A DNA stretch of 64,000 nt from a virus (IMGVR_UViG_3300047548_000621:8200-72199), one strand, 5' to 3'; positions 4,821 to 32,686 are shown, counted from the stretch's first letter. Translations and numbers: made by a program. Notes: generated by a model from the letters alone, not told the origin.

Positions 4821-6302
4821 TTAACTATATAGTTTTTTGATTTTTGAAAAATATTCTTGCTCTATCTTTACTTTTAACTCAGGTATATTAGGCTTTATAG
4901 TTTCGTCAAATGTTTTGAGTGGCATATCAATCAGGTCATCAAATTTTAGACCAAATCTTAAATAGCCGGCTATCGAAAAAGACGGAATCTTCAATTTTCC
5001 AGAATCATACAGAAACAAGTTATAATGATTGGCAATCTCTGCACATTTATGATAGTCCCAAACATCGTTTTCCCAAAAAGGATCGTTTGTTAATCTATAC
5101 CCATATTTTTCAGGATTGGCGTATAAACTACTTTTACCAAATGCACTCTCACTCATCCATAATGGAGACAGTCCCACACAATCTACCGGAGAATCATCTT
5201 CTATTAGACGATTTATCCAGTAATCTACTGTTTCCGGCGTTTCATATGGTAGACCAACGATATACCCTAGCATTAAGTTAACTTTATTGTTGAATGCATT
5301 TTTGAGCTTATGCATTGTTTCAAACAATTCTTCGGCCGGAGCATACTTGCCTATAGCCTTAGCAGTCTTCTCATTTAGTGTTTCAACTCCAAAATAGTGT
5401 CCGTTGAAGTTAAGGTCCTTAAGTAAACTTATTTGCTCTGGCTTCTTTGCAAGCAAATCTAACCTGGTATATCCTACAAAATTTAAATCTAATTTTGTTC
5501 TGTCTCTTGCTCTTAGCAACAATTCTATTTTATCATTGCGTTCATTAAAAGTGTCATCTACGATCATATATGTAGTAGTATTGAACTTTTCATAATTATA
5601 CAAAAGTTCAGAGTACAGGGAATCTTCCAAACGTATATACGAGGTGTCTTGTTTGTGCATTCCTATTAAAGGAAAAGTACAAAATGTACATCGGAAAATA
5701 CAACCTCTTGCAACTTCAAGAGGTAGGCATTCACCCTCTATTATAAAATCTGAATCGTGCCAAAAATGTGTAGAATGCTTATAATCATACAGCTTGCCTC
5801 TGAGGTCATATGAAATAACATAAGCACCATTTACTTTATAATCATAGTAGGGTTCAGTATCATTTGCTAGTGAGTTTACTAAGTCCAACATCATAGATTC
5901 TGCGTAGCCTAATACAACATAATCAGTATACGTTTCTCGTATTTTTACGAGTTGTTCAAGAATTACATTACTATTGCTACCGCCCACTATAATTTTTATA
6001 TTAGGGTATCTATTCTTAATATGTTGATTAATTGCAACGAAATCATCGTCTCCGTTATCAAAGGGAACTTTATGATTTTTTTTACTATGAAACAGGGTGG
6101 TACTGTAACCCAAGAATAAAGTATCATCAGTAATAATGATATCTAATAAAGCAAAAAGCTGGTCTAATGGCAATCTGGATACATAGTCTAATACTTGTAT
6201 TTCATACCCTGCTTTTCGCAGTGTATCAGCAATCGTATATGCGCCTAGAGGTCTAATTCTTTCATCAAATACTGCATCAGTGAGTATAACGCCGTGGATC
6301 AT
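4821..6302 (-). CDS. B12-binding-domain radical SAM enzyme, tandem paralog
   Basis: 493 aa with CIFRCTFCTFP motif. Collinear similarity to 3283-4812, including LFLGYS(S/T)TLF, GYI(I/V)GLP(G/Y)ETPE and NP(K/E)KYGY. Confidence 0.7.
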   Translation of the reverse strand: MIHGVILTDAVFDERIRPLGAYTIADTLRKAGYEIQVLDYVSRLPLDQLFALLDIIITDDTLFLGYSTTLFHSKKNHKVPFDNGDDDFVAINQHIKNRYPNIKIIVGGSNSNVILEQLVKIRETYTDYVVLGYAESMMLDLVNSLANDTEPYYDYKVNGAYVISYDLRGKLYDYKHSTHFWHDSDFIIEGECLPLEVARGCIFRCTFCTFPLIGMHKQDTSYIRLEDSLYSELLYNYEKFNTTTYMIVDDTFNERNDKIELLLRARDRTKLDLNFVGYTRLDLLAKKPEQISLLKDLNFNGHYFGVETLNEKTAKAIGKYAPAEELFETMHKLKNAFNNKVNLMLGYIVGLPYETPETVDYWINRLIEDDSPVDCVGLSPLWMSESAFGKSSLYANPEKYGYRLTNDPFWENDVWDYHKCAEIANHYNLFLYDSGKLKIPSFSIAGYLRFGLKFDDLIDMPLKTFDETIKPNIPELKVKIEQEYFSKIKKLYS

Positions 6303-6977: not shown

Positions 6978-7052
6978 TGGTGCGCCCGGCAGGACTCGAA
7001 CCCGCAACCTAGCCCTTATGAGGGGCCAGCTCCACCATTGAGCTACAGGCGC
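6978..7052 (-). tRNA. tRNA-Met or Ile2 (CAU)
   Basis: Anticodon loop CUCAUAA, canonical T-arm GGUUCGAGUCC, CCA. Elongator, initiator and lysidine-Ile identities cannot be separated by eye. Confidence 0.7.
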
Positions 7053-7061
7053 ATTATTATT

Positions 7062-7148
7062 TGGTGGGAGTGGATGGATTCGAACCAACTCAGCCTTCCG
7101 ACAACAGATTTACAGTCTGCCCCAGCTCTCCAACTCTGGCGCACTCCC
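7062..7148 (-). tRNA. tRNA-Tyr (GUA), class II
   Basis: Anticodon loop CUGUAAA, long variable arm, acceptor GGGAGUG/CACUCCC, CCA. Confidence 0.7.
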
Positions 7149-7158
7149 AAATTAAACT

Positions 7159-7380
7159 TTACAAAAATTGATGGAGCCAACCATCAGCCAACTTCTGAAC
7201 TTCTTCGTCAGAAGCAAAATACTTATTCATATCGTTAATAGCGTCAAGTGTATCAAGGACATCATCTTCGTCCAACCCTTGATTACGCAAATGATTTAGA
7301 TAATCAGTAAGAGTTTCACAATCACACAGTTCTTGTTCAACATTCTTCTTACCAAACTCGACTTGAATAACTTGGCCCAT
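7159..7380 (-). CDS. Small acidic hypothetical protein
   Basis: 73-aa ORF. Confidence 0.3.
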   Translation of the reverse strand: MGQVIQVEFGKKNVEQELCDCETLTDYLNHLRNQGLDEDDVLDTLDAINDMNKYFASDEEVQKLADGWLHQFL

Positions 7381-7396
7381 AGTTGGCTCCTATGTG

Positions 7397-7627
7397 TTAC
7401 TTGGTTGCAGATTCCGTTGCAGCACCAGATGGAGTATCAGATGCAGTCTTTACGGTACCATCATCATTAAGCTGAACATCAGCAGATGAGGATGCAGCAG
7501 CGGCTTCATCAGCCGGTACATCAACAGTTTCAGTTCCCTTACTGCAAGCAGCAAGAGTAGCAAGGGCCGCAACAGCAGCAATAGTTACAATCTTCTTCAT
7601 ATTTTTTCCTCTTAATAAATGGTCCAT
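7397..7627 (-). CDS. Small lipoprotein
   Basis: Signal peptide with lipobox LAAC (MKKIVTIAAVAALATLAAC), followed by a low-complexity Ala/Ser/Thr-rich tail. Confidence 0.45.
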   Translation of the reverse strand: MDHLLRGKNMKKIVTIAAVAALATLAACSKGTETVDVPADEAAAASSSADVQLNDDGTVKTASDTPSGAATESATK

Positions 7628-10093: not shown

Positions 10094-10122
10094 ACTATAG
10101 CAGCCTGACAAATAAATGTCAA
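10094..10122 (-). promoter_or_regulatory. Sigma70 / T4-early-like promoter (minus strand)
   Basis: Minus strand reads TTGACA, 17 nt, TATAGT, just upstream of tRNA-Asn. Confidence 0.45.
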
Positions 10123-10685
10123 GCTGCTATTTTCAAGATCCTACTGTGCTTGGGAACACCTGAAATCAAGTAATCCATCTGATCCGCAAGAATGTTGCGG
10201 TTCTGTAGAATCAAGCTTTCATAGTGGTTCGGCTCGTAGGGAATGTAACGCAATTCCATACCACTTTGCTTTAATGTCTTGCAACCCTTCTTTTGGTTAC
10301 AGTCAAAGCAAGATGTTACGACATTAGTCCATTCGTCCAAACCGCCCAAGAACCTCGGGACAATGTGGTCACGACTCAAATCATACTTACTTGCGAAATG
10401 ATTTCCACAGTAAGCACAGATATGTCTGTCACGAGCAAACAATGTAGGGTTCGTAAGAACTACTTTGTTGTGCTTTTTGAAATCGAAACCGTTACCCCTA
10501 ATAGCAATAATGCTAGGAGTTTCTAGATAGCTACGAGTACCATCGTTCTTGTAACCACCGTTGTATCTAGCAATTACATCACCTAGACTCCAAGCTACCA
10601 GATTTTTTGCGTGATACGAAATTGCTTCGTCGTGGGAGACCCACGTTCTGGGGACACCCGATATGTCTAAGGCTAGAACTGCCAT
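10119..10685 (-). CDS. HNH homing endonuclease
   Basis: 188 aa with the motif YCGN...DHIVP...CFDCNQKKG. Confidence 0.6.
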   Translation of the reverse strand: MAVLALDISGVPRTWVSHDEAISYHAKNLVAWSLGDVIARYNGGYKNDGTRSYLETPSIIAIRGNGFDFKKHNKVVLTNPTLFARDRHICAYCGNHFASKYDLSRDHIVPRFLGGLDEWTNVVTSCFDCNQKKGCKTLKQSGMELRYIPYEPNHYESLILQNRNILADQMDYLISGVPKHSRILKIAA

Positions 10686-16331: not shown

Positions 16332-16928
16332 TTAATTTAAAGGAAGTCCTCTTGATGCTCTGCCATTGCCCTTATTACGACCTTTCCAAGTCGGCGTAAT
16401 ACTATGACAATTAGGACAAACTAATCTAAGGTTGGCGAATTCGTTATTTCCCGCGTTGCCGTCAATATGATCTAATTCCAACGACAATTTTGCGCCGCGC
16501 CATTCCGATATGCCACATTCAAAGCAGTTGCTTCCGTACTCACGAATCAACGCAGTTTTGATAGTCGTTCGTTCGGTTAGGTTTCCTTCATATAATCGTT
16601 TTTTAGTGTCCTCTCTAGTAGGAATATGCTGGCAATCTGCACTACAATATTTTTTTACTAGGTGCTTAGAAGAGGTGTGTTTTTTTCCGCAGCCTGCACA
16701 TTCCCATTCTACTTTGGTAGCTCTATTTTTATTAGAATGGGTAGCGGCGCAAGTGTGGTTACAGAATTTTTTGTGCCTATCAACATATGATAGTGTTTTG
16801 TTGCATTCCGCACAAGAACTAGGAGAACTGTCATAAAGTTCTACTCGTTGCAGTTTTTTCTTTTCTAAGGTAGCTCTGGCTTTTTTCATACCAAGCGCGC
16901 CTGCTTCTGCTTTTGTTAGTTTTCGCAT
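16332..16928 (-). CDS. HNH homing endonuclease
   Basis: 198 aa. LELDHIDGN...LRLVCPNCH HNH motif, several CxxC pairs. Confidence 0.6.
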   Translation of the reverse strand: MRKLTKAEAGALGMKKARATLEKKKLQRVELYDSSPSSCAECNKTLSYVDRHKKFCNHTCAATHSNKNRATKVEWECAGCGKKHTSSKHLVKKYCSADCQHIPTREDTKKRLYEGNLTERTTIKTALIREYGSNCFECGISEWRGAKLSLELDHIDGNAGNNEFANLRLVCPNCHSITPTWKGRNKGNGRASRGLPLN

Positions 16929-20438: not shown

Positions 20439-21506
20439 TTAAAATGCAAGTGCGCTGTAATCGTACAGTACCTTTTCCTTGACACGAGTAAGAATGAGCC
20501 TTGCACCCTTGCTTTCAAAGATAAACATTCCCTTCTGTGAATCCAAATTGATAAGATTTTCGGGAGTGAACTTAAACTCCTTCCATTCAGCCTCATCATT
20601 GTTAGGGTCAGTATCATATTCGATATTAACACCAGACACAGCAAGCGGGTTGCCTCGCCATTCACAGTATTCCAAACGCTCACTAGGAATTTCAGCACCA
20701 CAATCAATGAGAGTGATATCGTACCTAGCACCACTGTCATATTCAGGCTTTGCGTTAAGCATTTCAAGTGCCTCACTCGGGCTTTCGTTATATCGGTTCA
20801 TTTCTTCAATAAGAGCCTTAAGCATATCAAAGTTGAACTCACCAAACAAACTCGTAAGACCACAAATTTGGTCAATATACTGCTTGTTATTAAGACGATC
20901 CTCACAATATTCACGAATGAAGGTTACATCAAGTCCCTTAAAATCAAGCAGGTAGAACAGTCGACCGGGGCGATTACGCATATGCTCATTGACACGCCAC
21001 TTGTCATTCACGGTGAGGATGTAAAGCTTCTTACTACCGAATACACCATCAAGCAGTGTGAGGATTTCCTCCTGCTTGTCGCGGTCGTATACCTTCTCAA
21101 ACTCATCAAAAAGAATGACGCACGGCTGATCAATATCCTGCAATAGCTTGAAGAAGCCATCACCAGTCCAATCACGATTGATCACGATAGTAGGGACGCC
21201 TTGCTTTGCAAGTTCGATAGAGATATTCTTAGCAAGCAGCGTCTTGCCACTACCCTTTTCACCGTTCAACAGAACACCCGTCTGCTGGGGACGGTCCCAA
21301 AACGAATTGATAATCCGATCAGTGTGACGGAGAGTATTACCGTACAACTTTGACGGAATTTCAAAGTTTTCAATCTGATCAAGATAGAAATTACCAAAAG
21401 GATCTACCGCAACGGTATAGTTGCCTGCAGGAAGTTGCTCGTGTAGATTCATTGCTTCCTTGCTGGAAACACGAAAAGTAGTACCACTCTTAAGAAAGTA
21501 TGCCAT
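20439..21506 (-). CDS. AAA+ ATPase
   Basis: 355 aa. Walker A GEKGSGKTLLAKNI, Walker B ILFDEFEKV. Confidence 0.6.
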   Translation of the reverse strand: MAYFLKSGTTFRVSSKEAMNLHEQLPAGNYTVAVDPFGNFYLDQIENFEIPSKLYGNTLRHTDRIINSFWDRPQQTGVLLNGEKGSGKTLLAKNISIELAKQGVPTIVINRDWTGDGFFKLLQDIDQPCVILFDEFEKVYDRDKQEEILTLLDGVFGSKKLYILTVNDKWRVNEHMRNRPGRLFYLLDFKGLDVTFIREYCEDRLNNKQYIDQICGLTSLFGEFNFDMLKALIEEMNRYNESPSEALEMLNAKPEYDSGARYDITLIDCGAEIPSERLEYCEWRGNPLAVSGVNIEYDTDPNNDEAEWKEFKFTPENLINLDSQKGMFIFESKGARLILTRVKEKVLYDYSALAF

Positions 21507-21513
21507 ATTATCC

Positions 21514-21837
21514 TCAAAACTTTAGTAGGTTAAACGCAAGCAGGATATCCCGCTTGTCTTCGTCAACTGGATGAACTGCCAGTGCAGTATACTCACCTTC
21601 ATTTAGATCAGGTTCATAAAACTTTTCATACTTGAATCCAAACTTAGTGAGAATCTTTTCAACAGCCTCGAGGGCTTCTAGGTTGCGAACGCCAACACAA
21701 GTAAAGTATGTGTTGTCAGGATCTTCGGTGGAGCCGAGCTTGAACCCCAGCTTCATAGCAACGTGTGCGGTCTGCACAAGCTGGTACTCCTTGAAAATAT
21801 CTTGTCTGGTGAAAAAATATGCGTATCGTTTTGTCAT
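21514..21837 (-). CDS. Hypothetical protein
   Basis: 107-aa ORF. Confidence 0.3.
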   Translation of the reverse strand: MTKRYAYFFTRQDIFKEYQLVQTAHVAMKLGFKLGSTEDPDNTYFTCVGVRNLEALEAVEKILTKFGFKYEKFYEPDLNEGEYTALAVHPVDEDKRDILLAFNLLKF

Positions 21838-21884
21838 AGTTTCTTATAACAGGAGTTGACCCTAAAGTCAACCCCTTATTATCC

Positions 21885-23258
21885 TCACTTGTTAGCGTTT
21901 GCCCGAACTTCGTCAAAAGTCATATCACGAACAAGAACACCATTTTCAAAAACTGCTTCAAGCATATCCGTAGCAAAAATGTATTCACGGTCATCGCTAC
22001 GAACAGTATGGTACGTTCCATCAACAAACTTGATCAGCTTGAGCTTACCCTTCTTGCTCTGCTTGCCCTTGTCAGTGATCGGGTCCTTGAAAACATCAAC
22101 CCACTTACCATCAACAAGTGCCGCGCTGCACTTCATAGCGAAGCGGAAATCATCTCTATTCACAGTCTGAAGTAACATTCCGCCCTGACCGAAAGCCACA
22201 TTGTCAGCACTGTAACCAGCAAGCGTGATCGTGTAGAGAATGCTACGAATAGTCTGGTGATTGATGCCGTCACCCTGCAAGACACGGACATTGTTCAATA
22301 CCTTGTAGCCCTTGTCATTAACAGTGTGACCAAAGTTCTTGTCAAGAATCTTGAGGCACTTGCAGACAACATCAGCTGGATCTCCCGAGTCAGGACGAAC
22401 AACAAGAGTAGCACCACTATCAAGAACATCCTGCTTAAGTTCGGTACCCCACATTTCGCAAGCAGCGAAAATGTCATAGCTGTCCGAAACACAAGCAAAG
22501 ATACCACCTGGCTTTGCGTTCTGTTTGATCATATTGCGATAGCTGTCAACCTCGTGTTCACGCCCCCAGCTGGTTACAGTGCTGTGTTCCATTGCAGGAA
22601 CGCTAAACCCAGCCATGTCAGCATTGTAATAACGACGGGCAAAAAGCAGAGCCTCAACGGTGTCGGTCCCTTGAAAATTAACCAAGTGCGCGGCACCACC
22701 AATTCCTGCACTTTCCAAACTGCTAACCCCACGAGCACCGAAATCGTGAAGTTTAAAATCAATAGTAGTAGGATCACCAGTTTTCTCCAGATATTCAAGA
22801 ATCAATTTCTTGTTTTCATAGCTGTTAGTAGCAACAGTAGTAGGATACCAAATTGCACGAAGCAGCGCCGTTTCGAGGAACGAAGTCAGCCAGTAACAGT
22901 TAGGATCAGTGTTTTCAATCGTAACGAGAACATTACCAGTAGGAATGACAAGACCCTCAGGTGCTGCTTTAATGCGAACAGGAAGATATCCGTTATGTTC
23001 TAGAAGAATGTAAATCCAGCCTTCTCGATTAAAAGGTTCGCCGTGTGCTGTAATGATAGCTTCCGCTTCTTGGATCATTTCAAGCGTAATCGGGGTAAGC
23101 AAATATTCCTTAATAAAGGCCTGAAGTCCGAAGAAAACAGTAGCATCGTGTTTGCCACCGCGGCTTTCAATGTAGCTGTAGATACCAGTTGTGTTGGGAG
23201 GGTATTGATTGAACTGCGAATACTTATAGCTATCCGCGTTAAGAATAATGTTGTGCAT
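21885..23258 (-). CDS. nadV: Nicotinamide phosphoribosyltransferase (NAMPT)
   Basis: 457 aa. N-terminal NIILNADSYKYSQFNQYPPNTTGIYSYIESRGG is characteristic of NAMPT/NadV. Length fits. Confidence 0.85.
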   Translation of the reverse strand: MHNIILNADSYKYSQFNQYPPNTTGIYSYIESRGGKHDATVFFGLQAFIKEYLLTPITLEMIQEAEAIITAHGEPFNREGWIYILLEHNGYLPVRIKAAPEGLVIPTGNVLVTIENTDPNCYWLTSFLETALLRAIWYPTTVATNSYENKKLILEYLEKTGDPTTIDFKLHDFGARGVSSLESAGIGGAAHLVNFQGTDTVEALLFARRYYNADMAGFSVPAMEHSTVTSWGREHEVDSYRNMIKQNAKPGGIFACVSDSYDIFAACEMWGTELKQDVLDSGATLVVRPDSGDPADVVCKCLKILDKNFGHTVNDKGYKVLNNVRVLQGDGINHQTIRSILYTITLAGYSADNVAFGQGGMLLQTVNRDDFRFAMKCSAALVDGKWVDVFKDPITDKGKQSKKGKLKLIKFVDGTYHTVRSDDREYIFATDMLEAVFENGVLVRDMTFDEVRANANK

Positions 23259-23337
23259 AATAGAACTCCTCTATTTAAAATGCTAGCTTCTATCAGCTAG
23301 ACTTGATGATTGACTATAACAAATCTCTAGCAGAATG

Positions 23338-23934
23338 TCAACCGAATTCTACAAGGGTGACGGACCCGCCCTTACTAGAAACCTTTTCAGCAAAGTCTTC
23401 AATCATCGCAATGATGCGATCCTTATCACCCCCTGCAAGTCCCATACCGATGTAGGGGAAGCCGAAATTAAACATTTCCCCACCAAGTTGTCGGGCAGGC
23501 TTAGTTGCAGTTTGCCATGCCTTGGTATTTCCCTTGCCTGACCTCCAGCGAGTTTCAGCAAGTTCATTAGCAACCTTAGCACTGTCTTCGGAATGTGCTA
23601 CCTTTTCATACAGTGTGTCAAGAATGCGCTGGAATGCTTCATATTCAAAATGATCCTTGTCACGAGGTGCAAAGTCATATTGAGTATACGCATTCACTAT
23701 GAGAAAAGGATTATCCGCTTTTTTTACTACTTCAAGAGAGAAGGTACCTAGTTTGTCCCTATCACTCTTTACCGTAGCAAGGTCAGCTTCATATGCCTCC
23801 GGATATCGTTCACGAATCTCCTTAGCGATTCCAGAACCCATCGTGTGGTGACAATTACAACCATGAACTATCACAGTGAATTCTCCCTGTTCAGCGAGGT
23901 CAATGAGATTTCCCTTAGTGTGCTTAAGCATCAT
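23338..23934 (-). CDS. Macro-domain-like protein (tentative)
   Basis: 198 aa with Gly-rich loops (HGCNCHHTMGSGIAKEI, GFPYIGMGLAGGD) reminiscent of ADP-ribose-binding macro folds. Sits between nadV and natV. Confidence 0.3.
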   Translation of the reverse strand: MMLKHTKGNLIDLAEQGEFTVIVHGCNCHHTMGSGIAKEIRERYPEAYEADLATVKSDRDKLGTFSLEVVKKADNPFLIVNAYTQYDFAPRDKDHFEYEAFQRILDTLYEKVAHSEDSAKVANELAETRWRSGKGNTKAWQTATKPARQLGGEMFNFGFPYIGMGLAGGDKDRIIAMIEDFAEKVSSKGGSVTLVEFG

Positions 23935-24134
23935 CGTCTCCGATCCGTGAAAACATTTTTACCGCATTGCGGGCACTTGATGCCGCGATCAACCGAATAA
24001 TCACCTAAATAATCGTAGCTGTGCTTGATGGACTGCACTTCACTCTGGGTATATTCTAGAACCGAAGCACAAGACCAACAAGTAACACGATGGACGGCTG
24101 ATTCGTCTCTTCCTACAACCTTAACCATAATCAA
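23931..24134 (-). CDS. Small zinc-ribbon protein
   Basis: 67 aa. CWSC...CPQC. Confidence 0.35.
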   Translation of the reverse strand: MIMVKVVGRDESAVHRVTCWSCASVLEYTQSEVQSIKHSYDYLGDYSVDRGIKCPQCGKNVFTDRRR

Positions 24135-25180
24135 AGCCCCAGAAAATATTGAATGATATGAAAGTGATCATCAAACAGGTCTTCCTCACGAAGATCACCA
24201 ATCGGTACCCACTTTGCCTTTTCAGCATCGTCAGCACCCTTCACCTTTGGCAATGTAACATCGTCTGCCAACTTGAAGTGGTATGCCTTCGTGATAACAC
24301 GACCAAGCGTAGAACGATAAGGATCGTCAAAGGTTTGATGGTCACGAATGCTACCACGCAATACAGCTTCCGGAACCTTGATCTTGGTTTCTTCACGAAG
24401 TTCACGAATAGCACCATCAAGCTGACGCTCAAATTCGTTTAGGTGACCGCCAGGCAATGCCCACAGTCCCTTACCAGGTTCTGCTTTACGCTTGACAAGC
24501 AGGATGTGACCACTCTGTTCAACTACTGCATCAACAGTGGCGTGCTTCACAGGATAGGGCGAAACTTCCCACTGCTTCTTGTAGTTACGAACGAACTTAA
24601 GTTCACTCTGCAATTGCTTAAAAGCATCGGTGTTATAAAAGTTTATAATGAACTGTAGAACGCTTTCAGGAATAGCATCATTATGAATAAACTCTCCCGA
24701 CAACCACTTCTCCCGAATATAGGTAGCGTGAACATCAGCCTGAATCTCAACATTCACCGAGCGAAACTGTGGGAACATCTTTAGATAATAGCTGGTGTTA
24801 TCCTTGCTAGCACCGATCAATCCAACCTTAGCATCGTTGAATCCATTTGCGCGGAAGCCGAAGTTGTTGACAACATCAAGCACAGTGTCCTTAACGATAT
24901 GCTGAACCTGATTGATCCAGGCAGCTTCGTTATATGTCTTGTCATAGAGTGGCTTGATGATCAGCCTAGATGCATCTCCGCCGCGCATAGCACCAAAAAT
25001 CATATCTGCTCGTTCTTGGAACGTGAATGGGTTACGGATCGTGCGGGCCTTACCTGCCGAACCTACGAGAACCAATACATTTTTAGATTTTTGTAGCGCA
25101 ATATCGATAATACGCTTATGCTCGTTGTGTAGTGGCTGAAACCTACCTACAAAGACCAATAGGTCAAACTCTTTTTCCAT
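24131..25180 (-). CDS. natV: Bifunctional NMN adenylyltransferase / Nudix hydrolase
   Basis: 349 aa. N-terminal VFVGRFQPLHNEH is the (H/T)xGH nucleotidyltransferase motif. C-terminal GGHLNEFERQLDGAIRELREETKI is a Nudix box. Confidence 0.85.
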   Translation of the reverse strand: MEKEFDLLVFVGRFQPLHNEHKRIIDIALQKSKNVLVLVGSAGKARTIRNPFTFQERADMIFGAMRGGDASRLIIKPLYDKTYNEAAWINQVQHIVKDTVLDVVNNFGFRANGFNDAKVGLIGASKDNTSYYLKMFPQFRSVNVEIQADVHATYIREKWLSGEFIHNDAIPESVLQFIINFYNTDAFKQLQSELKFVRNYKKQWEVSPYPVKHATVDAVVEQSGHILLVKRKAEPGKGLWALPGGHLNEFERQLDGAIRELREETKIKVPEAVLRGSIRDHQTFDDPYRSTLGRVITKAYHFKLADDVTLPKVKGADDAEKAKWVPIGDLREEDLFDDHFHIIQYFLGL

Positions 25181-25276
25181 TGCTCAAAACTCCTTTGAAG
25201 CTATTTTAATGTAGCGAGTCTATCTCGCTACAGTCTTATTTATACTTGGAAAGTAGGATAAAGTCAATAACTTTCT

Positions 25277-25498
25277 TTACCCATTTTTATTACGAATCAC
25301 CGTAGTTACATTATGAATGTCGGTGTTCTGCCTACGAATCTGCCTACTGTTCAATGCCAATAAGTTAGCCATCTTGTTTACCTGCTCACTCAAATGACGA
25401 ACACGATCCTCTAGAAACTTGATTCTTTTTTCTGGATCGTTGGGTTGAACGGTAACTTCTTTGTGTTCAGTTATTTGATTTGTATACATCTTCTTCAT
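25277..25498 (-). CDS. Hypothetical protein
   Basis: 73-aa ORF. Confidence 0.3.
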   Translation of the reverse strand: MKKMYTNQITEHKEVTVQPNDPEKRIKFLEDRVRHLSEQVNKMANLLALNSRQIRRQNTDIHNVTTVIRNKNG

Positions 25499-25507
25499 AG
25501 TGATTCC

Positions 25508-25690
25508 TTACACGGTATTTATGTCATACTTCAAAACAAGATAACTTACTAGAGGATGATCAGCAGGTTCAAACTCAATGATATAGCTCGTATGTCTTTT
25601 GGTATAGGGCAAATGCTTTACACCAGATTCCTTAATCGCCTTGTCAACTTCTCTGAAATGCTGCCAGGGAACTAAAATCTTAGTTGTCAT
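25508..25690 (-). CDS. Hypothetical small protein (MTTKILVPW...)
   Basis: The start ATG overlaps the upstream gene's YDN* stop (11-nt overlap). The ORF-track N-terminal extension is discounted. Confidence 0.3.
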   Translation of the reverse strand: MTTKILVPWQHFREVDKAIKESGVKHLPYTKRHTSYIIEFEPADHPLVSYLVLKYDINTV

Positions 25691-26216
25691 AAAGTTCCTC
25701 CTCAAAGTCCTCTTCCGATTCCAGCTTGTAGCCACGACCATCTTTCTCATAGTCAATGTAATAGTCTTCGTTGGGCATAAGCTTACGAATACCATCTACA
25801 GTGAGTGATAGAAACAGAAAGTCTTTCTCATCGGAAATGCTGACAACATACCAGCTAGTCCCGCATCCTCCACCAAACACTTTTAACATACCGTGCTTGA
25901 TATTATGATTTGTAAGTGCTTCTCTAAGCTGCATACCTTTGCTAGTAATCAACCTAATAGGTTCCTTCTTACCATTTAACCTGTCACGATCTTCTGGCGT
26001 CAATAGGCTTAATGTAGCGTTATTGTCTTCGTCAATTGTCAATAGGCAAGACTTGACCTTGATGCTACCTTTTGTGCTAGGATTGTCGGGAGTTTCTTTG
26101 GTTGACCACGGAACAGAACATTCAACGTGATTAACATAGTAGCTCTCACCCTTAGTTTTCAAGACCCACATGGGAATTGATGGATCGGTGAGGTGACCCT
26201 TATTGAAATGGAACAC
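25680..26216 (-). CDS. Hypothetical protein
   Basis: 178-aa ORF. Confidence 0.4.
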   Translation of the reverse strand: MFHFNKGHLTDPSIPMWVLKTKGESYYVNHVECSVPWSTKETPDNPSTKGSIKVKSCLLTIDEDNNATLSLLTPEDRDRLNGKKEPIRLITSKGMQLREALTNHNIKHGMLKVFGGGCGTSWYVVSISDEKDFLFLSLTVDGIRKLMPNEDYYIDYEKDGRGYKLESEEDFEEELYDN

Positions 26217-26721: not shown

Positions 26722-27258
26722 TTATTCACCTCGCAAATAAGCAAGAACATTTTCAGGTGAAGTTTCACCATATGGGTCAGTTGTGCAGTTATGCTCAATG
26801 CCGGGCTCAATGAACCACTTTTCAATAACACCATTATCGATAATAACTGCATAGCGCCAAGAACGAACACCAAATCCAAGATTGTCCTTCTGAACAAGCA
26901 TATTCATCTGGCTAGTGAAATAACCAGAACCATCTGGAATAACCTTAACATTCTGCAATCCTTGATCTTGCGCCCACTTATTCATAACAAAACTGTCATT
27001 CACAGAAACACAGTAGATTTCATCAATCCCGAGTTCCTTGAACTTTTCATAGTTCTGTTCAAAGCCCGGAAGCTGATAAGTTGAGCAAGTTGGGGTGAAC
27101 GCTCCGGGGAGCGAAAACAATACTACTCGCTTACCTGCGAAATAGTCGTAACTTGATACATCCTGCCAGCGATAGGGATTTGGTCCTTCAATAGAATCAT
27201 CACGGACACGAGTCTTAAAGACTACAGCAGGAACAATTTGTGGAAGTTGATCAGTCAT
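26722..27258 (-). CDS. Peroxiredoxin (Prx5/redoxin-like, AhpC/TSA family)
   Basis: 178 aa. LPGAFTPTCS contains the peroxidatic Cys in an FTPTC context. Confidence 0.7.
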   Translation of the reverse strand: MTDQLPQIVPAVVFKTRVRDDSIEGPNPYRWQDVSSYDYFAGKRVVLFSLPGAFTPTCSTYQLPGFEQNYEKFKELGIDEIYCVSVNDSFVMNKWAQDQGLQNVKVIPDGSGYFTSQMNMLVQKDNLGFGVRSWRYAVIIDNGVIEKWFIEPGIEHNCTTDPYGETSPENVLAYLRGE

Positions 27259-28963: not shown

Positions 28964-31204
28964 TTAAAAGTGAAGTCCCAACGAGACTCCATATGTCCTG
29001 GGCTCTCTAGCAAAAGCCAAAGACCAAAGACCTACTAGGTTTCCTGCGGCGTGAACTGGGCCTCTAGAATTAAGTAAATTGTGACCCCAAAATGTCAACT
29101 TAGCATCTGCGCCATTAAGTGAAAACGATGTAGCTACACTTGCATCTAATAGATTCAGCGCAGGTGAGCGAACACCTGGGTCCATTGTCAATACTTTATA
29201 ATTTTGTGTCCCGTTTGCATTTGAACTTAGTAAAATTCCAGGTCCTTGCGAATTATAAACATCGTGTGGACCTACGTAACGATAAGCAAGATTAAAATTA
29301 ACATTTTTTAGTGTATAATTAACACTCGCTGTTCCCATAAACTTTGGAGCGTAGATCATATCTACACTAGACAAGTCGTAGGTATCAGTCAATGGAGCCA
29401 AATTCGGGTTAGGAGAATTAATAACAAATCCATTATAACTCGTCTTTAATGCAGAAAATGAACCATTAAATGTTAAATTATTAACTGGCTTATATGAAAG
29501 TTCTAGCTCAACGCCTTTAATGTTGCTTGAAGCAACATTCGCAATTACGACCTCATTTCCGGTTGGGCCTCCTGGAATATTAGTAATTTGCTGCATACCT
29601 TTATATTTTGCAACAAATCCAGCAAGTGATATATTCAGTTTGTTATCAAACAAAGAAACCTTGGTTCCTAATTCAAAAGAATCAACAATCTCTGGATTGA
29701 ATGGTGTAGTTGCTGATACAGGAGTCAGTCCGCGTAAAGAAAATCCGCCCGAACGATAACCCTGAGACCAAGAAGCATATACCATAGTATCCTTGTTTAT
29801 ATGATAATCCACGCTAACTCTAGGAGTAAATCTATTGAAATTCTTAGATGAGTCTCCTAGTTGATAGAAGAAGAACTGGTTTAACCACTTCTTGTCGTGA
29901 GTCCATCTGCCCCCCAATTCTAATCGCAAGTTGTCAGTAATATTTGCGTTAACATCACTGAAGAAAGCGTAAGAAGTTGTTCCTCCCTTAGCAACTTGAG
30001 CATTAGGTAACGAAAGAGAACCCCCGACCCACGAACCAAAGAATCTAGTGTTCATTGCGTGGTAGTAGCGACCATCATAGAAATAAGCACCAACTACATA
30101 ATCAATAGAATTATTAATGTTGCCTGCTGCTCTCAACTCTTGACTATATTGACGAAATGTTTGTTGTCTATAGATAGCAGAAAAATCCAATGAAGTTCCG
30201 TCAAAATCCTGCCACTGATATTCGGTTGACTTCCTATAAGATGAAATGGATGTTAGCTTGACTGCATCAAGATCGTAATTCATTTCCAACGTCACTGATG
30301 GAGCAGAAAAATATGTTTTAGGTTCGTTACCATCAATAGTATTTCCAAAAACAGTGTATAAATCAGAAGTTAGATTGCGATTGCATTGGTTAGAAGGAAT
30401 TAATGCACAAAGATATTCGCCGTTTTTAGTTGTCGAAGAAACATAAGGATTTGATTCTTGAATCTGCTTCTCAACAGTTAATAAAGCATTAAAATTATTG
30501 CTGGGTTCATATAAGAAACTTGCACCGAAGTTTTCATTATTATATCCTCCTACACTCTTTCCATCAGATGCTCGGTGTAGGAAGCCGTCGCTTTGACTAT
30601 GAAAATACCAAAGCTTAGTAGAAATAGAGTCTGCCAACTTAGGCAAGTTTACTACTGTTTTTGCAGTGTATGAATTATAATTTCCGTAAGATACATCTGC
30701 CTTAACATCAAGTCTGCCTAGAGGTCTTGTTCTCTTGATATTAATTACGCCGCCTATAGTGTTTCTACCGAACAGAGTTCCCTGAGGACCTCTCAAAATT
30801 TCAAGTTGTGAAGTATCATACAAATCCAAATATTGTCCAGTGCTTGTTCCGATAAAGACACCGTCAACCACTACAGCAACTGTTGGGTCATAGGATTTTT
30901 CAACATCAGCAAATGACATTCCCCTGATAGATACACTTGCTGTTCCGGCTGCCGAAGGCTGTGCGTTGAAAAGCACATTTGGGGCAATGCCCATCAAGTC
31001 GCCGGTGTTTACATTACCGCGAAGATCCAGCGTTTTTGAATCAATTGCAGTGATGGCGATAGGAGTATTTCGTAGTTCTTCGTTTCTGTATCTAGCAGTA
31101 ACGATGATATCATTGGGATTTTCTGTCTCAATTTTATTAGGTGCAGCGATTGCACTAGTTGATGCTAATAATGAAAGACATAGCCCAAATAAATATTTCT
31201 TCAT
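28964..31204 (-). CDS. TonB-dependent outer-membrane receptor
   Basis: Internal Met at 31202-31204, with an AAGGAAAG Shine-Dalgarno, is taken as the start. Signal peptide, TonB-box-like DIIVTA and a plug region, about 700 aa of alternating beta-barrel pattern, C-terminal aromatic residue (...LGLHF). Confidence 0.7.
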   Translation of the reverse strand: MKKYLFGLCLSLLASTSAIAAPNKIETENPNDIIVTARYRNEELRNTPIAITAIDSKTLDLRGNVNTGDLMGIAPNVLFNAQPSAAGTASVSIRGMSFADVEKSYDPTVAVVVDGVFIGTSTGQYLDLYDTSQLEILRGPQGTLFGRNTIGGVINIKRTRPLGRLDVKADVSYGNYNSYTAKTVVNLPKLADSISTKLWYFHSQSDGFLHRASDGKSVGGYNNENFGASFLYEPSNNFNALLTVEKQIQESNPYVSSTTKNGEYLCALIPSNQCNRNLTSDLYTVFGNTIDGNEPKTYFSAPSVTLEMNYDLDAVKLTSISSYRKSTEYQWQDFDGTSLDFSAIYRQQTFRQYSQELRAAGNINNSIDYVVGAYFYDGRYYHAMNTRFFGSWVGGSLSLPNAQVAKGGTTSYAFFSDVNANITDNLRLELGGRWTHDKKWLNQFFFYQLGDSSKNFNRFTPRVSVDYHINKDTMVYASWSQGYRSGGFSLRGLTPVSATTPFNPEIVDSFELGTKVSLFDNKLNISLAGFVAKYKGMQQITNIPGGPTGNEVVIANVASSNIKGVELELSYKPVNNLTFNGSFSALKTSYNGFVINSPNPNLAPLTDTYDLSSVDMIYAPKFMGTASVNYTLKNVNFNLAYRYVGPHDVYNSQGPGILLSSNANGTQNYKVLTMDPGVRSPALNLLDASVATSFSLNGADAKLTFWGHNLLNSRGPVHAAGNLVGLWSLAFAREPRTYGVSLGLHF

Positions 31205-31306
31205 ATTTCTTTCCTTTATACTAATAATTATCTGAAATAATATGTTCCAAAAAAAATCCAGATAAGGCGGTGCCCACTCTTTCAAGCGGGCACCCATTTT
31301 ATCTAC

Positions 31307-32686
31307 TTACTTAGAAGTTTCTTTCTTAGCAGGTTTTGCGTTAGGTGCACCCAACTTAGTGATTACACCGTTGACAAGAGCCTGACCTTCTTCTGTCTGG
31401 CTAAGAGCAGTCAACATACCTGCAATGCTAGTTCCGCCCGCCGGGCTGAACACGCCTGCAAGATTAGACATACCGCTCTGTACATCACCGCCGTTAGCGA
31501 TGATCTTAAGATCAGCAGCCTTAATAGCTCCAGCCATTTCCTTACCAACAGCTTCGGTAGCTTCAACATTACGAATCTTGATGAGATAATCCTGATAACT
31601 CTGGTTCTCACCGATTTCCTTAGCAAGCGTCATTTGAGCGTTAACCGGGGCAAGCAAGATAGCCTTTTCAGCTTCACCCTTAGCGATACCCTCAGCCTGA
31701 ATACCTTCTGCATTCTTGAGAGTAGCCTGTAGATTACCTTCTGCAATCTTAATTGCAGCTTCACGCTCGGCTTCTGCACTCACCACCTTGACTCGCTGAT
31801 CCTGCTCTGCCTTAACAACAGCAACTTCACGCTCGATTTCAGCAGTCTTGACGCTCTGAACCTTCTGTACTTCCATCTGTCGTTCAGCAGTAGTCTTAGC
31901 TTCTGCCTGAACTTCCTGCTCACTCTTTTCCTGAGCGATGCCGACGATCTTTTCCTTTTCGGCTTCACGAAGACCGACAGTCTGTTCAGCTTCTGTCTTG
32001 CTCAATGCAATCTGTCGCTGGGCTTCAATTTCTCGGGATTCAGCTTCCTGCAAGTTCTTCGCAACTTCCATACGACTTTCCTTTTCAATAAAGGACTTTT
32101 TCTTCGCCATAATGTTGTGAATAACCTGGCTGTTCTGTGCGTCACGAATGTTCATAAACTCAATAGTCTTAACAGTCTGGACACCCCATTCCTTAAGACC
32201 TTCGTCAACAACAGCAGAGAATTCTGCGCCCATTGTAGCACGATCTGTCATAATGTGATCAAGGGTATACTTAGCAAGAACATTACGAACAGCACCTTGT
32301 AGAACACCAGATAGCTGATCCTTGAGTTCCTGGAAGTTAGAAACACGCTGGGCAGCAGTCTGACTATCGCTTACTCGGAAGAATGCACGAACGTCTACGA
32401 GAAATTCAAGACGATCAACGTCATATGCATCGTAATTGAGCAGGTTCAAGTCAAACACTGACAATGGGAACTTACTGACTGTGACACCGATCTTGGGAAT
32501 CCAGCTGGGGAATTCATAGTAGCTGTTGCCGGCTTCAAGTCCAGACCCATATGAGATAGACTTCTTACCTGACTGAACGATATGCACTTCGTTAGTAGGG
32601 ACAACAACGCGCCAAAAGAGGGCGCAAATAATGCTAATGCCGACAATAGCAGCAAGAGCAATCAAACCAATAAAAATCATATTCAA
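31307..32686 (-). CDS. SPFH/band-7 (flotillin-like) membrane protein
   Basis: 459 aa. N-terminal TM helix, SPFH-like region, then a long Glu/Ala/Lys-rich coiled coil (EAEKEKIVGIAQEKSEQEVQAEAK...). Confidence 0.7.
   Translation of the reverse strand: MNMIFIGLIALAAIVGISIICALFWRVVVPTNEVHIVQSGKKSISYGSGLEAGNSYYEFPSWIPKIGVTVSKFPLSVFDLNLLNYDAYDVDRLEFLVDVRAFFRVSDSQTAAQRVSNFQELKDQLSGVLQGAVRNVLAKYTLDHIMTDRATMGAEFSAVVDEGLKEWGVQTVKTIEFMNIRDAQNSQVIHNIMAKKKSFIEKESRMEVAKNLQEAESREIEAQRQIALSKTEAEQTVGLREAEKEKIVGIAQEKSEQEVQAEAKTTAERQMEVQKVQSVKTAEIEREVAVVKAEQDQRVKVVSAEAEREAAIKIAEGNLQATLKNAEGIQAEGIAKGEAEKAILLAPVNAQMTLAKEIGENQSYQDYLIKIRNVEATEAVGKEMAGAIKAADLKIIANGGDVQSGMSNLAGVFSPAGGTSIAGMLTALSQTEEGQALVNGVITKLGAPNAKPAKKETSK

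Follow-up and report, generated by a model that had tools for sequence, protein, structure and literature searches.

A phage NARP2 locus with an intervening macro-domain gene, a small putative zinc-ribbon gene and GAUAGAC leader hairpins

Known NAD+ reconstitution pathways and the locus

NAD+ depletion is among the commonest bacterial antiviral strategies, and the reconstitution pathways NARP1, NARP2 and NARP3 are known viral answers to it. NARP2, by its published definition, comprises two genes (Osterman et al. 2024, bioRxiv 10.1101/2024.02.11.579819). Described here is a NARP2 locus in viral DNA, at positions 21885-25180 of IMGVR_UViG_3300047548_000621:8200-72199 (the window, that is, the whole stretch of 64,000 nt analysed, to which all coordinates refer), in which a macro-domain gene and a gene for a small putative zinc-ribbon protein (Znr) lie between the pathway genes natV and nadV, and a predicted RNA hairpin precedes each of those two. 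On balance we hold it somewhat probable, with the activities taken from homology, that this is a NARP2 variant in which the macro protein and the Nudix domain of NatV recycle ADP-ribose-1''-phosphate (ADPR-1P) under dedicated RNA control.

The NARP2 pathway of Vibrio phage KVP40 (Lee et al. 2017; Osterman et al. 2024) has the same two enzymes, identical in domain architecture, and the same presumed role in rebuilding NAD+. In KVP40, however, natV does not lie within 6-8 kb of nadV, and the macro gene, the zinc ribbon and the GAUAGAC hairpin are not nearby, whereas the window holds all of them in one compact block; neither NARP2 preprint mentions a macro domain in the context of NARP2. Such a domain is known from the other pathway. 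A Poa1p-like macro protein, Adpp, is found in 15% of NARP1 operons and turns ADPR-1P, which the RES-domain defence aRES produces, into ADP-ribose (ADPR), and the use of NARP2 and the addition of a phosphatase to NARP1 are presented as alternative answers to RES-type NADases (bioRxiv 10.64898/2026.01.28.702374). The window's macro protein is homologous to Adpp and, as in the NARP1-AP operon (Adps-Adpp-Namat) of Vibrio phage Gary, lies inside an NAD+ reconstitution operon; the partner pathway there is NARP1 and here NARP2, which takes no ADPR as substrate. Since NARP2 also beats aRES alone, the published rationale of feeding Adps is inapplicable here. The only ADPR-consuming activity predicted in the block is that of the NatV Nudix domain.

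The NARP2 pair also occurs, in the same order, in bacterial NadM-Nudix/NadV operons (Synechocystis slr0787, 2qjo; Francisella NadM, 2qjt), and some of these loci share the hairpin. Among the 80 bacterial genomes with the closest NadV, scanned within 3 kb, nadM-Nudix stands directly upstream of nadV in 63; a macro or zinc-ribbon gene within that distance was found in 0/80, whereas the window has both, and the insertion of these two genes is therefore phage-specific.

The first-pass annotation of this DNA had proposed four open reading frames (ORFs) at the locus, and all four are present. They are co-directional, on the minus strand, in the transcription order natV, Znr, macro, nadV. The natV gene (24131-25180, 349 aa) encodes a predicted bifunctional protein, with an N-terminal nicotinamide mononucleotide (NMN) adenylyltransferase (NMNAT) and a C-terminal Nudix domain of the ADPR pyrophosphatase type. 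Znr occupies 23931-24128 (65 aa) and the macro gene 23338-23934 (198 aa), and nadV (21885-23258, 457 aa) encodes a nicotinamide phosphoribosyltransferase (NAMPT). The small ORF previously drawn at 23931-24134 is thus real, but its mechanical start at TTG 24134 is probably not the true one; the homologues are 65 aa long and begin MVKV, which points to ATG 24128. Stop and start codons overlap or nearly abut at the natV/Znr and Znr/macro junctions, with a GGAG-type ribosome-binding site before each gene, and Znr and macro are translationally coupled. Purifying selection acts on both small genes (pN about 0.17-0.35, pS about 0.64-0.73; ratio of non-synonymous to synonymous change, dN/dS, about 0.1-0.2). 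In the public annotation of the source contig (JGI 3300043399 Ga0451681_0000026, our L128, 120 kb) the zinc-ribbon ORF is missed, and the macro gene is begun at internal Met32 (167 aa), with loss of a conserved N-terminal strand.

NadV and NatV are the NARP2 pair, an already known pathway, as judged from strong family matches. NadV matches the Pfam families NAPRTase and NAMPT_N and the NCBIfam equivalog NF006629 (656 bits, cut-off 405), and aligns with the solved structures of a bacterial NAMPT (7yqo, E 5e-176) and human NAMPT (E 4e-134). NatV matches Pfam CTP_transf_like and NUDIX and the NadM-Nudix equivalog NF003786 (427 bits, cut-off 397), and its sequence shows a Nudix box and the motif GRFQPLHNEH. 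Over its whole length it aligns with slr0787 (E 1.9e-69), its Nudix domain doing so with the full ADPR pyrophosphatase domain of that protein. The view that the two enzymes form an NAD+ salvage pair of the KVP40 type had been put forward in the first-pass annotation and holds up well: both equivalog cut-offs are passed, and the two NadV proteins are 46% identical. Homologues of Adps or Namat were not found among the window ORFs scanned, a 2321-aa ORF and some ORFs below 100 aa lying outside that scan, and tblastn of the seven published aRad1 inhibitors of aRES against the window gave chance-level matches only.

The macro protein and its place between natV and nadV

The 198-aa protein is a macro domain of the Poa1p/Adpp family. 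It matches phrog_335 ("phosphatase") with E 2.7e-44, and yeast Poa1p, an ADPR-1P phosphatase, ranked first in both phmmer and profile searches of the PDB. An AlphaFold2 model built with 40 homologues has a pLDDT of 82, with low confidence confined to residues 118-151, and in a Foldseek search with this model the top match was again Poa1p (6lfq, E 5e-8, TM 0.73 normalised to target length), followed by BT1257, DarG and TARG1. The macro fold, until now a tentative suggestion, is therefore confidently supported. Pfam, which the first pass had proposed for checking both small proteins, leaves both below threshold. For the macro protein the phrog_335 match and the fold comparison settle the assignment regardless, and the description of both small genes as uncharacterised no longer applies to it, its family having been characterised in January 2026.

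Poa1p is the best match in both structure and sequence, and shares the motif H-x-C-N-C...G-x-G-I-A and a second glycine-rich loop. Identity is about 18%, however, and Phe152 of Poa1p is replaced by Ala167, which is invariant in the macro family; Poa1p also works in the clearance of a tRNA-splicing by-product, whereas the present protein stands in a viral setting. A lineage-specific insertion of about 38 aa (residues 113-150), at a site that coincides with the position of an insertion in Poa1p, is shared by the window protein with one relative. Homologues mostly have a length of about 160 aa, and Adpp lacks the insertion.

Against the validated Adpp of Vibrio phage Gary (query sequence from the supplement of bioRxiv 10.64898/2026.01.28.702374) the window protein has 27% identity (E 6e-14) over its full length apart from the insertion, and against another NARP1-linked macro protein 40% over 113 aa. 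According to the same supplement, alanine mutants of His24 or Asn27 abolish Adpp function. Both residues are kept at the equivalent positions of the window protein; across a family alignment of 53 sequences, Asn27 is found in 53/53 and His24 in 40/53. The published detection rule for Adpp takes genes at most two genes away from the NARP1 pair Adps and Namat, and the neighbours here are natV and nadV. The protein is thus best regarded, on its sequence, as Adpp-like by homology and yet not a member of NARP1-AP.

How regularly the gene occurs at this place was assessed in the 80 IMG/VR loci closest by NadV (L numbers denote individual loci), a phylogenetically non-independent sample, of which 62 non-redundant loci contain both natV and nadV. 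A macro gene lies between these two, on the same strand, in 30/62 loci and elsewhere in the flanks (±8 kb) in 3, corresponding to a 101-fold higher density in the gap, where it is by far the commonest recurring gene. In a second, distant NARP2 clade (clade B, NadV about 50% identical; 18 loci) a macro gene is adjacent in 1 locus and within 7 kb in 2, and Sinorhizobium phage phiM19 has an "Appr-1-p processing" gene 1.5 kb downstream of nadV. Neighbour joining places the clade-A NARP2 macro proteins together with 65% bootstrap; those of clades A and B group in 1/100 bootstraps, and the NARP1-linked proteins are scattered among the NARP2-linked ones. The macro proteins of the two clades do not form one clade, which suggests repeated recruitment. 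The proposal that the small genes belong with natV and nadV would have suffered had they proved peculiar to the window; instead both recur, macro in 30/62 loci and Znr in about 13% of NARP2 loci and beside the NARP2 genes of two cultured phages.

Apart from the macro gene, the contents of the gap shift between loci and comprise small ORFs, homing endonucleases and radical-SAM genes, with a NADAR domain in 3 loci. The order in these three (L055, L058 and one more) is natV-NADAR-macro-nadV, as with the NADAR gene at L055:4751-5281 (Pfam E 6e-49), in agreement with an earlier report of NADAR beside NadM/NadV (Iyer et al. 2022, PMC9503650). The natV-nadV region is recombinationally active. Candidate homing endonucleases in the gap of relatives lie at L021:5485-6390, L021:7103-7909 and L018:6235-7014; an HNH-like motif is seen in the second, and inspection by eye is the basis for the other two. 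Two Pfam-confirmed HNH genes stand elsewhere in the window, at 10119-10685 and 16332-16928. In L131 an N-terminal macro fragment (6078-6272) and a full macro gene (7004-7504) are separated by an opposite-strand DUF7487 gene, an arrangement that may reflect disruption or duplication by an inserted element.

Leader hairpins, promoter-like sites and the zinc ribbon

The block probably divides into at least two transcription units, natV-Znr-macro and nadV, by virtue of leader hairpins and an internal promoter-like site that the first-pass annotation did not contain. The internal site (23313-23341, minus strand) is a predicted sigma-70-like promoter, TTGACA-17-TATAGT, in the macro/nadV gap, whose -35 box overlaps the macro stop codon. 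It matches 11/12 consensus positions and has an extended TG. The -35 region, GGTTGACA, is unchanged in 7/7 aligned relatives, and TTGAC[AT] occurs upstream of nadV in 42/71 loci. The nadV leader hairpin, CUAGCU-GAUAGA-AGCUAG, follows at 23283-23300 (minus strand), about 25 nt before nadV begins. Its counterpart, UGUAGCGA-GAUAGAC-UCGCUACA, is found at 25210-25232 (minus strand), about 30 nt upstream of the natV start and just beyond the end of the segment originally considered; the predicted fold of this leader has -18 kcal/mol and a z-score of -3.9. Directly upstream of it lies a second promoter-like site, TTGACT-17-TATAAA (25239-25267, minus strand), recognised from its sequence. The promoter scan missed this site, the -10 box of which ends in A, and a similar TTGAC..TATAA(A/T) is present in most relatives.

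Several observations argue that the hairpin is a specific element. GATAGAC hairpins occur only twice on the coding strand of the window, in the natV and nadV leaders. In a census of both strands of 71 non-redundant loci (970 kb), 46/49 strict instances are at most 90 nt upstream of natV or nadV; loci with hairpins include L018-L097, L124-L126 and L142-L208. When the macro-nadV spacers are aligned, the stem varies by compensatory substitutions while the loop stays GATAGA(C). The covariation set consisted of 79 distinct 25-mers picked solely for GATAGAC upstream of natV or nadV, and in these 72.9% of the cells are paired, compared with 41.9% after shuffling. For covariation the set scores 0.726, whereas shuffled sets score 0.197 (0/500 reach the observed value) and slid controls 0.09-0.17; the two pairs nearest the loop form in 79/79 and 76/79 sequences, and all four Watson-Crick types are used.

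The same hairpin stands upstream of natV and/or nadV in Xanthomonas phage LucasX, Rhodobacter phage RcXuper and Synechococcus phage BUCT-ZZ01, and it is present in 9/80 bacterial nadM/nadV loci, including an isolate chromosome contig. It is kept in compact natV-nadV junctions without a TTGAC[AT] box in the gap, for example in L048 and L094, and we take this as a sign that it acts at the RNA level. A search of Rfam 15 with positions 21000-26000, both strands, gave no match at E<=1. With the lambda boxB/N and MS2 operator hairpins it shares, by analogy only, a short stem, a sequence-specific loop and a position in the leader of regulated genes. The NAD+ riboswitches (nadA and pnuC motifs) are likewise associated with NAD genes, but the present hairpin, of only about 20-25 nt, is far smaller. 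The GAUAGAC hairpin is most likely a common post-transcriptional operator of a costly pathway.

Znr was previously described as a zinc ribbon with two CxxC motifs. In favour of this, its four cysteines are invariant in 20 sequences (C17-x2-C20 and C52-P-x-C55, that is, CxxC...CPxC) and its AlphaFold2 model is all-beta (pLDDT 82.6); on the other side, all Pfam zinc-ribbon matches are below threshold, and the best Foldseek match, the ZitP zinc finger, has an E-value of 1.5. The protein matches phrog_2834 (E 1.8e-12), and its dN/dS against relatives is 0.12-0.22. A pattern scan of IMG/VR with Znr alone gave nothing, the homologues being found instead with a hidden Markov model run on NARP2 loci. 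A word-indexed search gave 24 clusters and a profile search over 1.84 billion representatives 711, nearly all of stand-alone proteins of 58-68 aa; no informative domain fusion was found among the 711.

Next to NARP2 genes Znr occurs in three gene orders. The order natV-Znr-macro-nadV is that of the window, L023 and L026, and of L140, which has an additional 64-aa ORF between natV and Znr; a looser form, natV-Znr-...-macro-nadV, is found in L018, L029, L052, L081, L131 and L137, and L098 has natV-Znr-...-macro, nadV not being found in that stretch. The order natV-Znr-nadV occurs in L047 and the cultured Rhodobacter phage RcXuper, and natV-nadV-Znr in Mesorhizobium phage Cp1R7A-A1. Outside NARP2, Znr is seen in a T5/T4-like context (L099) and in Sinorhizobium phage phiM9, where no NAD-related neighbour is annotated, and Xanthomonas phage BUDD has a homologue two genes away from a NADAR gene. 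Znr is a NARP2-linked accessory, and our guess is that it may be a protein- or RNA-binding regulator or inhibitor.

Recycling of ADPR-1P and the competing explanations

The proposed recycling would begin with a RES-type NADase, which cleaves NAD+ by phosphorolysis to ADPR-1P. The macro protein would then strip the phosphate to give ADPR, which the Nudix domain of NatV would split into AMP and ribose-5-phosphate. NadM-type Nudix domains, including that of slr0787, hydrolyse ADPR to these two products. Ribose-5-phosphate would be converted by host Prs to phosphoribosyl pyrophosphate (PRPP), NadV would join PRPP to the released nicotinamide to form NMN, and the NMNAT domain of NatV would make NAD+ from NMN and ATP. 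In this way the macro protein would let NARP2 regain the ribose-phosphate skeleton, sparing the PRPP pool, and would clear ADPR-1P, which is counted among the toxic ADP-ribose metabolites (Iyer et al. 2022, PMC9503650). We infer the coupling of the macro protein to the Nudix domain ourselves, and the individual activities and any regulatory role are likewise deduced.

A more far-reaching version, which we regard as possible but doubtful, is that in this widespread phage lineage NARP2 forms a regulated closed-loop module with Znr as a third accessory. The hairpin would be an RNA switch that responds either to NatV or NadV, as autoregulation, or to a metabolite related to NAD, and would gate a costly and toxic pathway; this switch would be shared with some bacterial nadM-nadV operons. 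The macro protein and the NatV Nudix domain would return ADPR-1P to PRPP precursors, an economy so far credited to NARP1.

A number of points weigh against ADPR-1P recycling and its control as proposed. KVP40 has no macro gene near nadV, and KVP40 NARP2 alone already cancels aRES defence in E. coli (bioRxiv 10.64898/2026.01.28.702374), so any benefit of the macro protein would lie in economy or detoxification and not in necessity. No Prs gene was found in the window, and the recycling loop would therefore need the host enzyme. The Pfam Macro match (PF01661) scores 20.9 bits against a gathering threshold of 22 and covers only the N-terminal 42 residues. Identity to Adpp is only 27%, the substrate choice of a macro domain is not readable from its sequence, and the window protein carries the low-confidence insertion of about 38 aa. 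Thirteen NARP2-linked macro proteins (e.g. L042, L064, L081, L087) have Gln at the position of His24 (VQGCNC for VHGCNC), which may mean altered chemistry or a tolerated substitution, although H24A inactivates Adpp. The same macro family stands alone in about 2,500 phage records without NARP context, for example in phapecoctaviruses and 7-11-like phages, indicating a function independent of the NARP genes. Homing endonucleases and radical-SAM genes gather as well between natV and nadV, which makes this gap a variable hotspot. Finally, Znr, at about 13% of loci, is too infrequent to be the general partner of the hairpin.

The stand-alone occurrence of the family would suit a macro protein that acts as a de-ADP-ribosylase of the DarG, TARG1 or SCO6735 kind, on phage DNA, RNA or protein modified by DarT or CmdT, its position among NAD genes reflecting a shared theme of NAD/ADP-ribose conflict. 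The folds of all three proteins match just behind Poa1p, there are weak matches to DarG models (PADLOC 29 bits; NCBIfam equivalog 26 bits against a cut-off of 250), and NADAR, which reverses DNA ADP-ribosylation in other systems, is found in the natV-nadV gap of 3 loci. The catalytic lysine of DarG (K80) and TARG1 (K84), however, aligns with Gln85 (DarG pTKkhw, window protein ayTQldf), and this position is Gln in 52/53 sequences, which argues against a DarG-like glycohydrolase mechanism. The position of the catalytic Asp125 of TARG1 is presumably, from an alignment by eye, Ala167 of the macro protein. Poa1p and Adpp, the sole close relatives that have been characterised, both act as ADPR-1P phosphatases, and phage macro domains have been argued to act mostly on soluble ADP-ribose derivatives (Iyer et al. 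2022, PMC9503650); we consider a de-ADP-ribosylase rather improbable. Soluble substrates other than ADPR-1P are conceivable as well, among them the Thoeris signals glycocyclic ADPR (gcADPR) and His-ADPR, O-acetyl-ADPR from sirtuin-type effectors and ADPR cyclic phosphate, in which case the protein would counter defence by destroying an immune signal or by-product and not recycle anything. Macro domains do act on many 1''- and 2''-substituted ADP-ribose derivatives (PMC9503650), about half of this NARP2 clade keeps the macro gene though NARP2 needs no ADPR, and the Gln subclade hints at altered chemistry in some members. No family member is known to destroy such a signal, and the conserved His/Asn pair fits the phosphatase members; the likelihood of this alternative is low, below that of a de-ADP-ribosylase. 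Lower again is the likelihood that macro, Znr, endonucleases and radical-SAM genes simply collect in a permissive gap, their conservation being the common descent of one phage lineage. The gap does vary from about 60 bp to 4.8 kb and contains many unrelated ORFs, including HNH and GIY-YIG endonucleases, some macro domain is carried by 40-56% of medium and jumbo phages (PMC9503650), and the sample consists of close NadV relatives. Against mere accumulation stand the 101-fold density of macro genes in the gap over the flanks, the independent linkage in clade B, phiM19 and 15% of NARP1 operons, the presence of Znr beside NARP2 genes in three orders in phages of unrelated hosts, and the translational coupling and purifying selection of both genes.

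The hairpins call for a separate comparison. They could be a generic phage element, namely a boxB-like antitermination site, a hairpin for RNase processing or stability, or part of a mobile, PeSL-like promoter/stem-loop cassette that aids gene shuffling. Hairpins at the 5' terminus often stabilise mRNAs, and each of the two in the window follows a sigma-70-like promoter. PeSL promoter/stem-loop cassettes have been described from T4-type phages (PMC2839356, PMC4122927). In the window the promoter-like site comes before the hairpin, and the hairpin is confined to natV and nadV. The PeSL stem-loop reportedly precedes its promoter, the opposite layout, and stands at many early genes. A generic element also fits poorly with the placement of nearly all strict instances, and of both in the window, directly upstream of natV or nadV, with a loop that is invariant while the stems covary, with persistence at junctions that have no TTGAC[AT] box, and with occurrence upstream of bacterial nadM/nadV. 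We therefore judge it unlikely, though it is the alternative to which we give the greatest weight, and prefer a dedicated operator as part of the ADPR-1P recycling variant of NARP2.

Genomic neighbourhood and significance

The window also encodes tail-fibre and baseplate-type proteins, a ribonucleotide reductase and homing endonucleases, in keeping with phage gene content. By megablast the four-gene block had no match in 50,697 phage records, arguing that there is no close cultured relative, and related IMG/VR viral contigs reach 360-385 kb, which points to a large or jumbo phage lineage. Downstream of nadV lie p107 (21514-21837) and an AAA ATPase (phrog_2376; 20439-21506). The former follows nadV in 14/80 IMG/VR loci with 68-90% identity and has no match in Pfam, NCBIfam or PADLOC; the latter does so in 28/80 loci, distant ones included, with 43-86% identity. 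These two may belong to the same conserved module or to core synteny. A reading of p107 as a Pth2-like hydrolase, in common with phiM19 gp214, was rejected, the two proteins showing no similarity (E 0.09). Upstream of natV, a 178-aa conserved protein of no assigned function (25680-26216; 56-87%) and a peroxiredoxin (26722-27258), the latter 88-89% identical in the closest relatives, are syntenic. Further away, 28964-31297 (minus strand) encodes a complete TonB-dependent receptor of 777 aa, with Plug and beta-barrel domains, followed by an SPFH/Band-7 protein (31307-32686). The receptor has 6 weak matches, at no more than about 28% identity, among the 50,697 phage records, and appears to be an outer-membrane receptor of a kind that phages rarely carry.

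Both NARP2 and Adpp are known, but for their combination we found no account in the literature consulted, where NADAR alone is put beside NadM/NadV (Iyer et al. 2022). No description appears to exist either of the zinc ribbon linked to NARP2 or of the GAUAGAC leader hairpin. The hairpin is the most original element of the locus, and the enzymatic part is an incremental extension of recent work.

A phage-specific and repeatedly recruited macro gene in about half of one large NARP2 clade suggests that the clearance or recycling of ADPR-1P counts despite the PRPP route. The macro protein gives a concrete route through the NatV Nudix domain, the role of which has so far had no explanation, and its placement predicts a testable "NARP2-AP" pathway. 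Znr may be a new small protein with an anti-defence or regulatory role. The paired hairpins, for their part, are a candidate for a new cis-regulatory RNA of NAD salvage in both phages and bacteria, and could explain how a pathway that is toxic when constitutive is tolerated.

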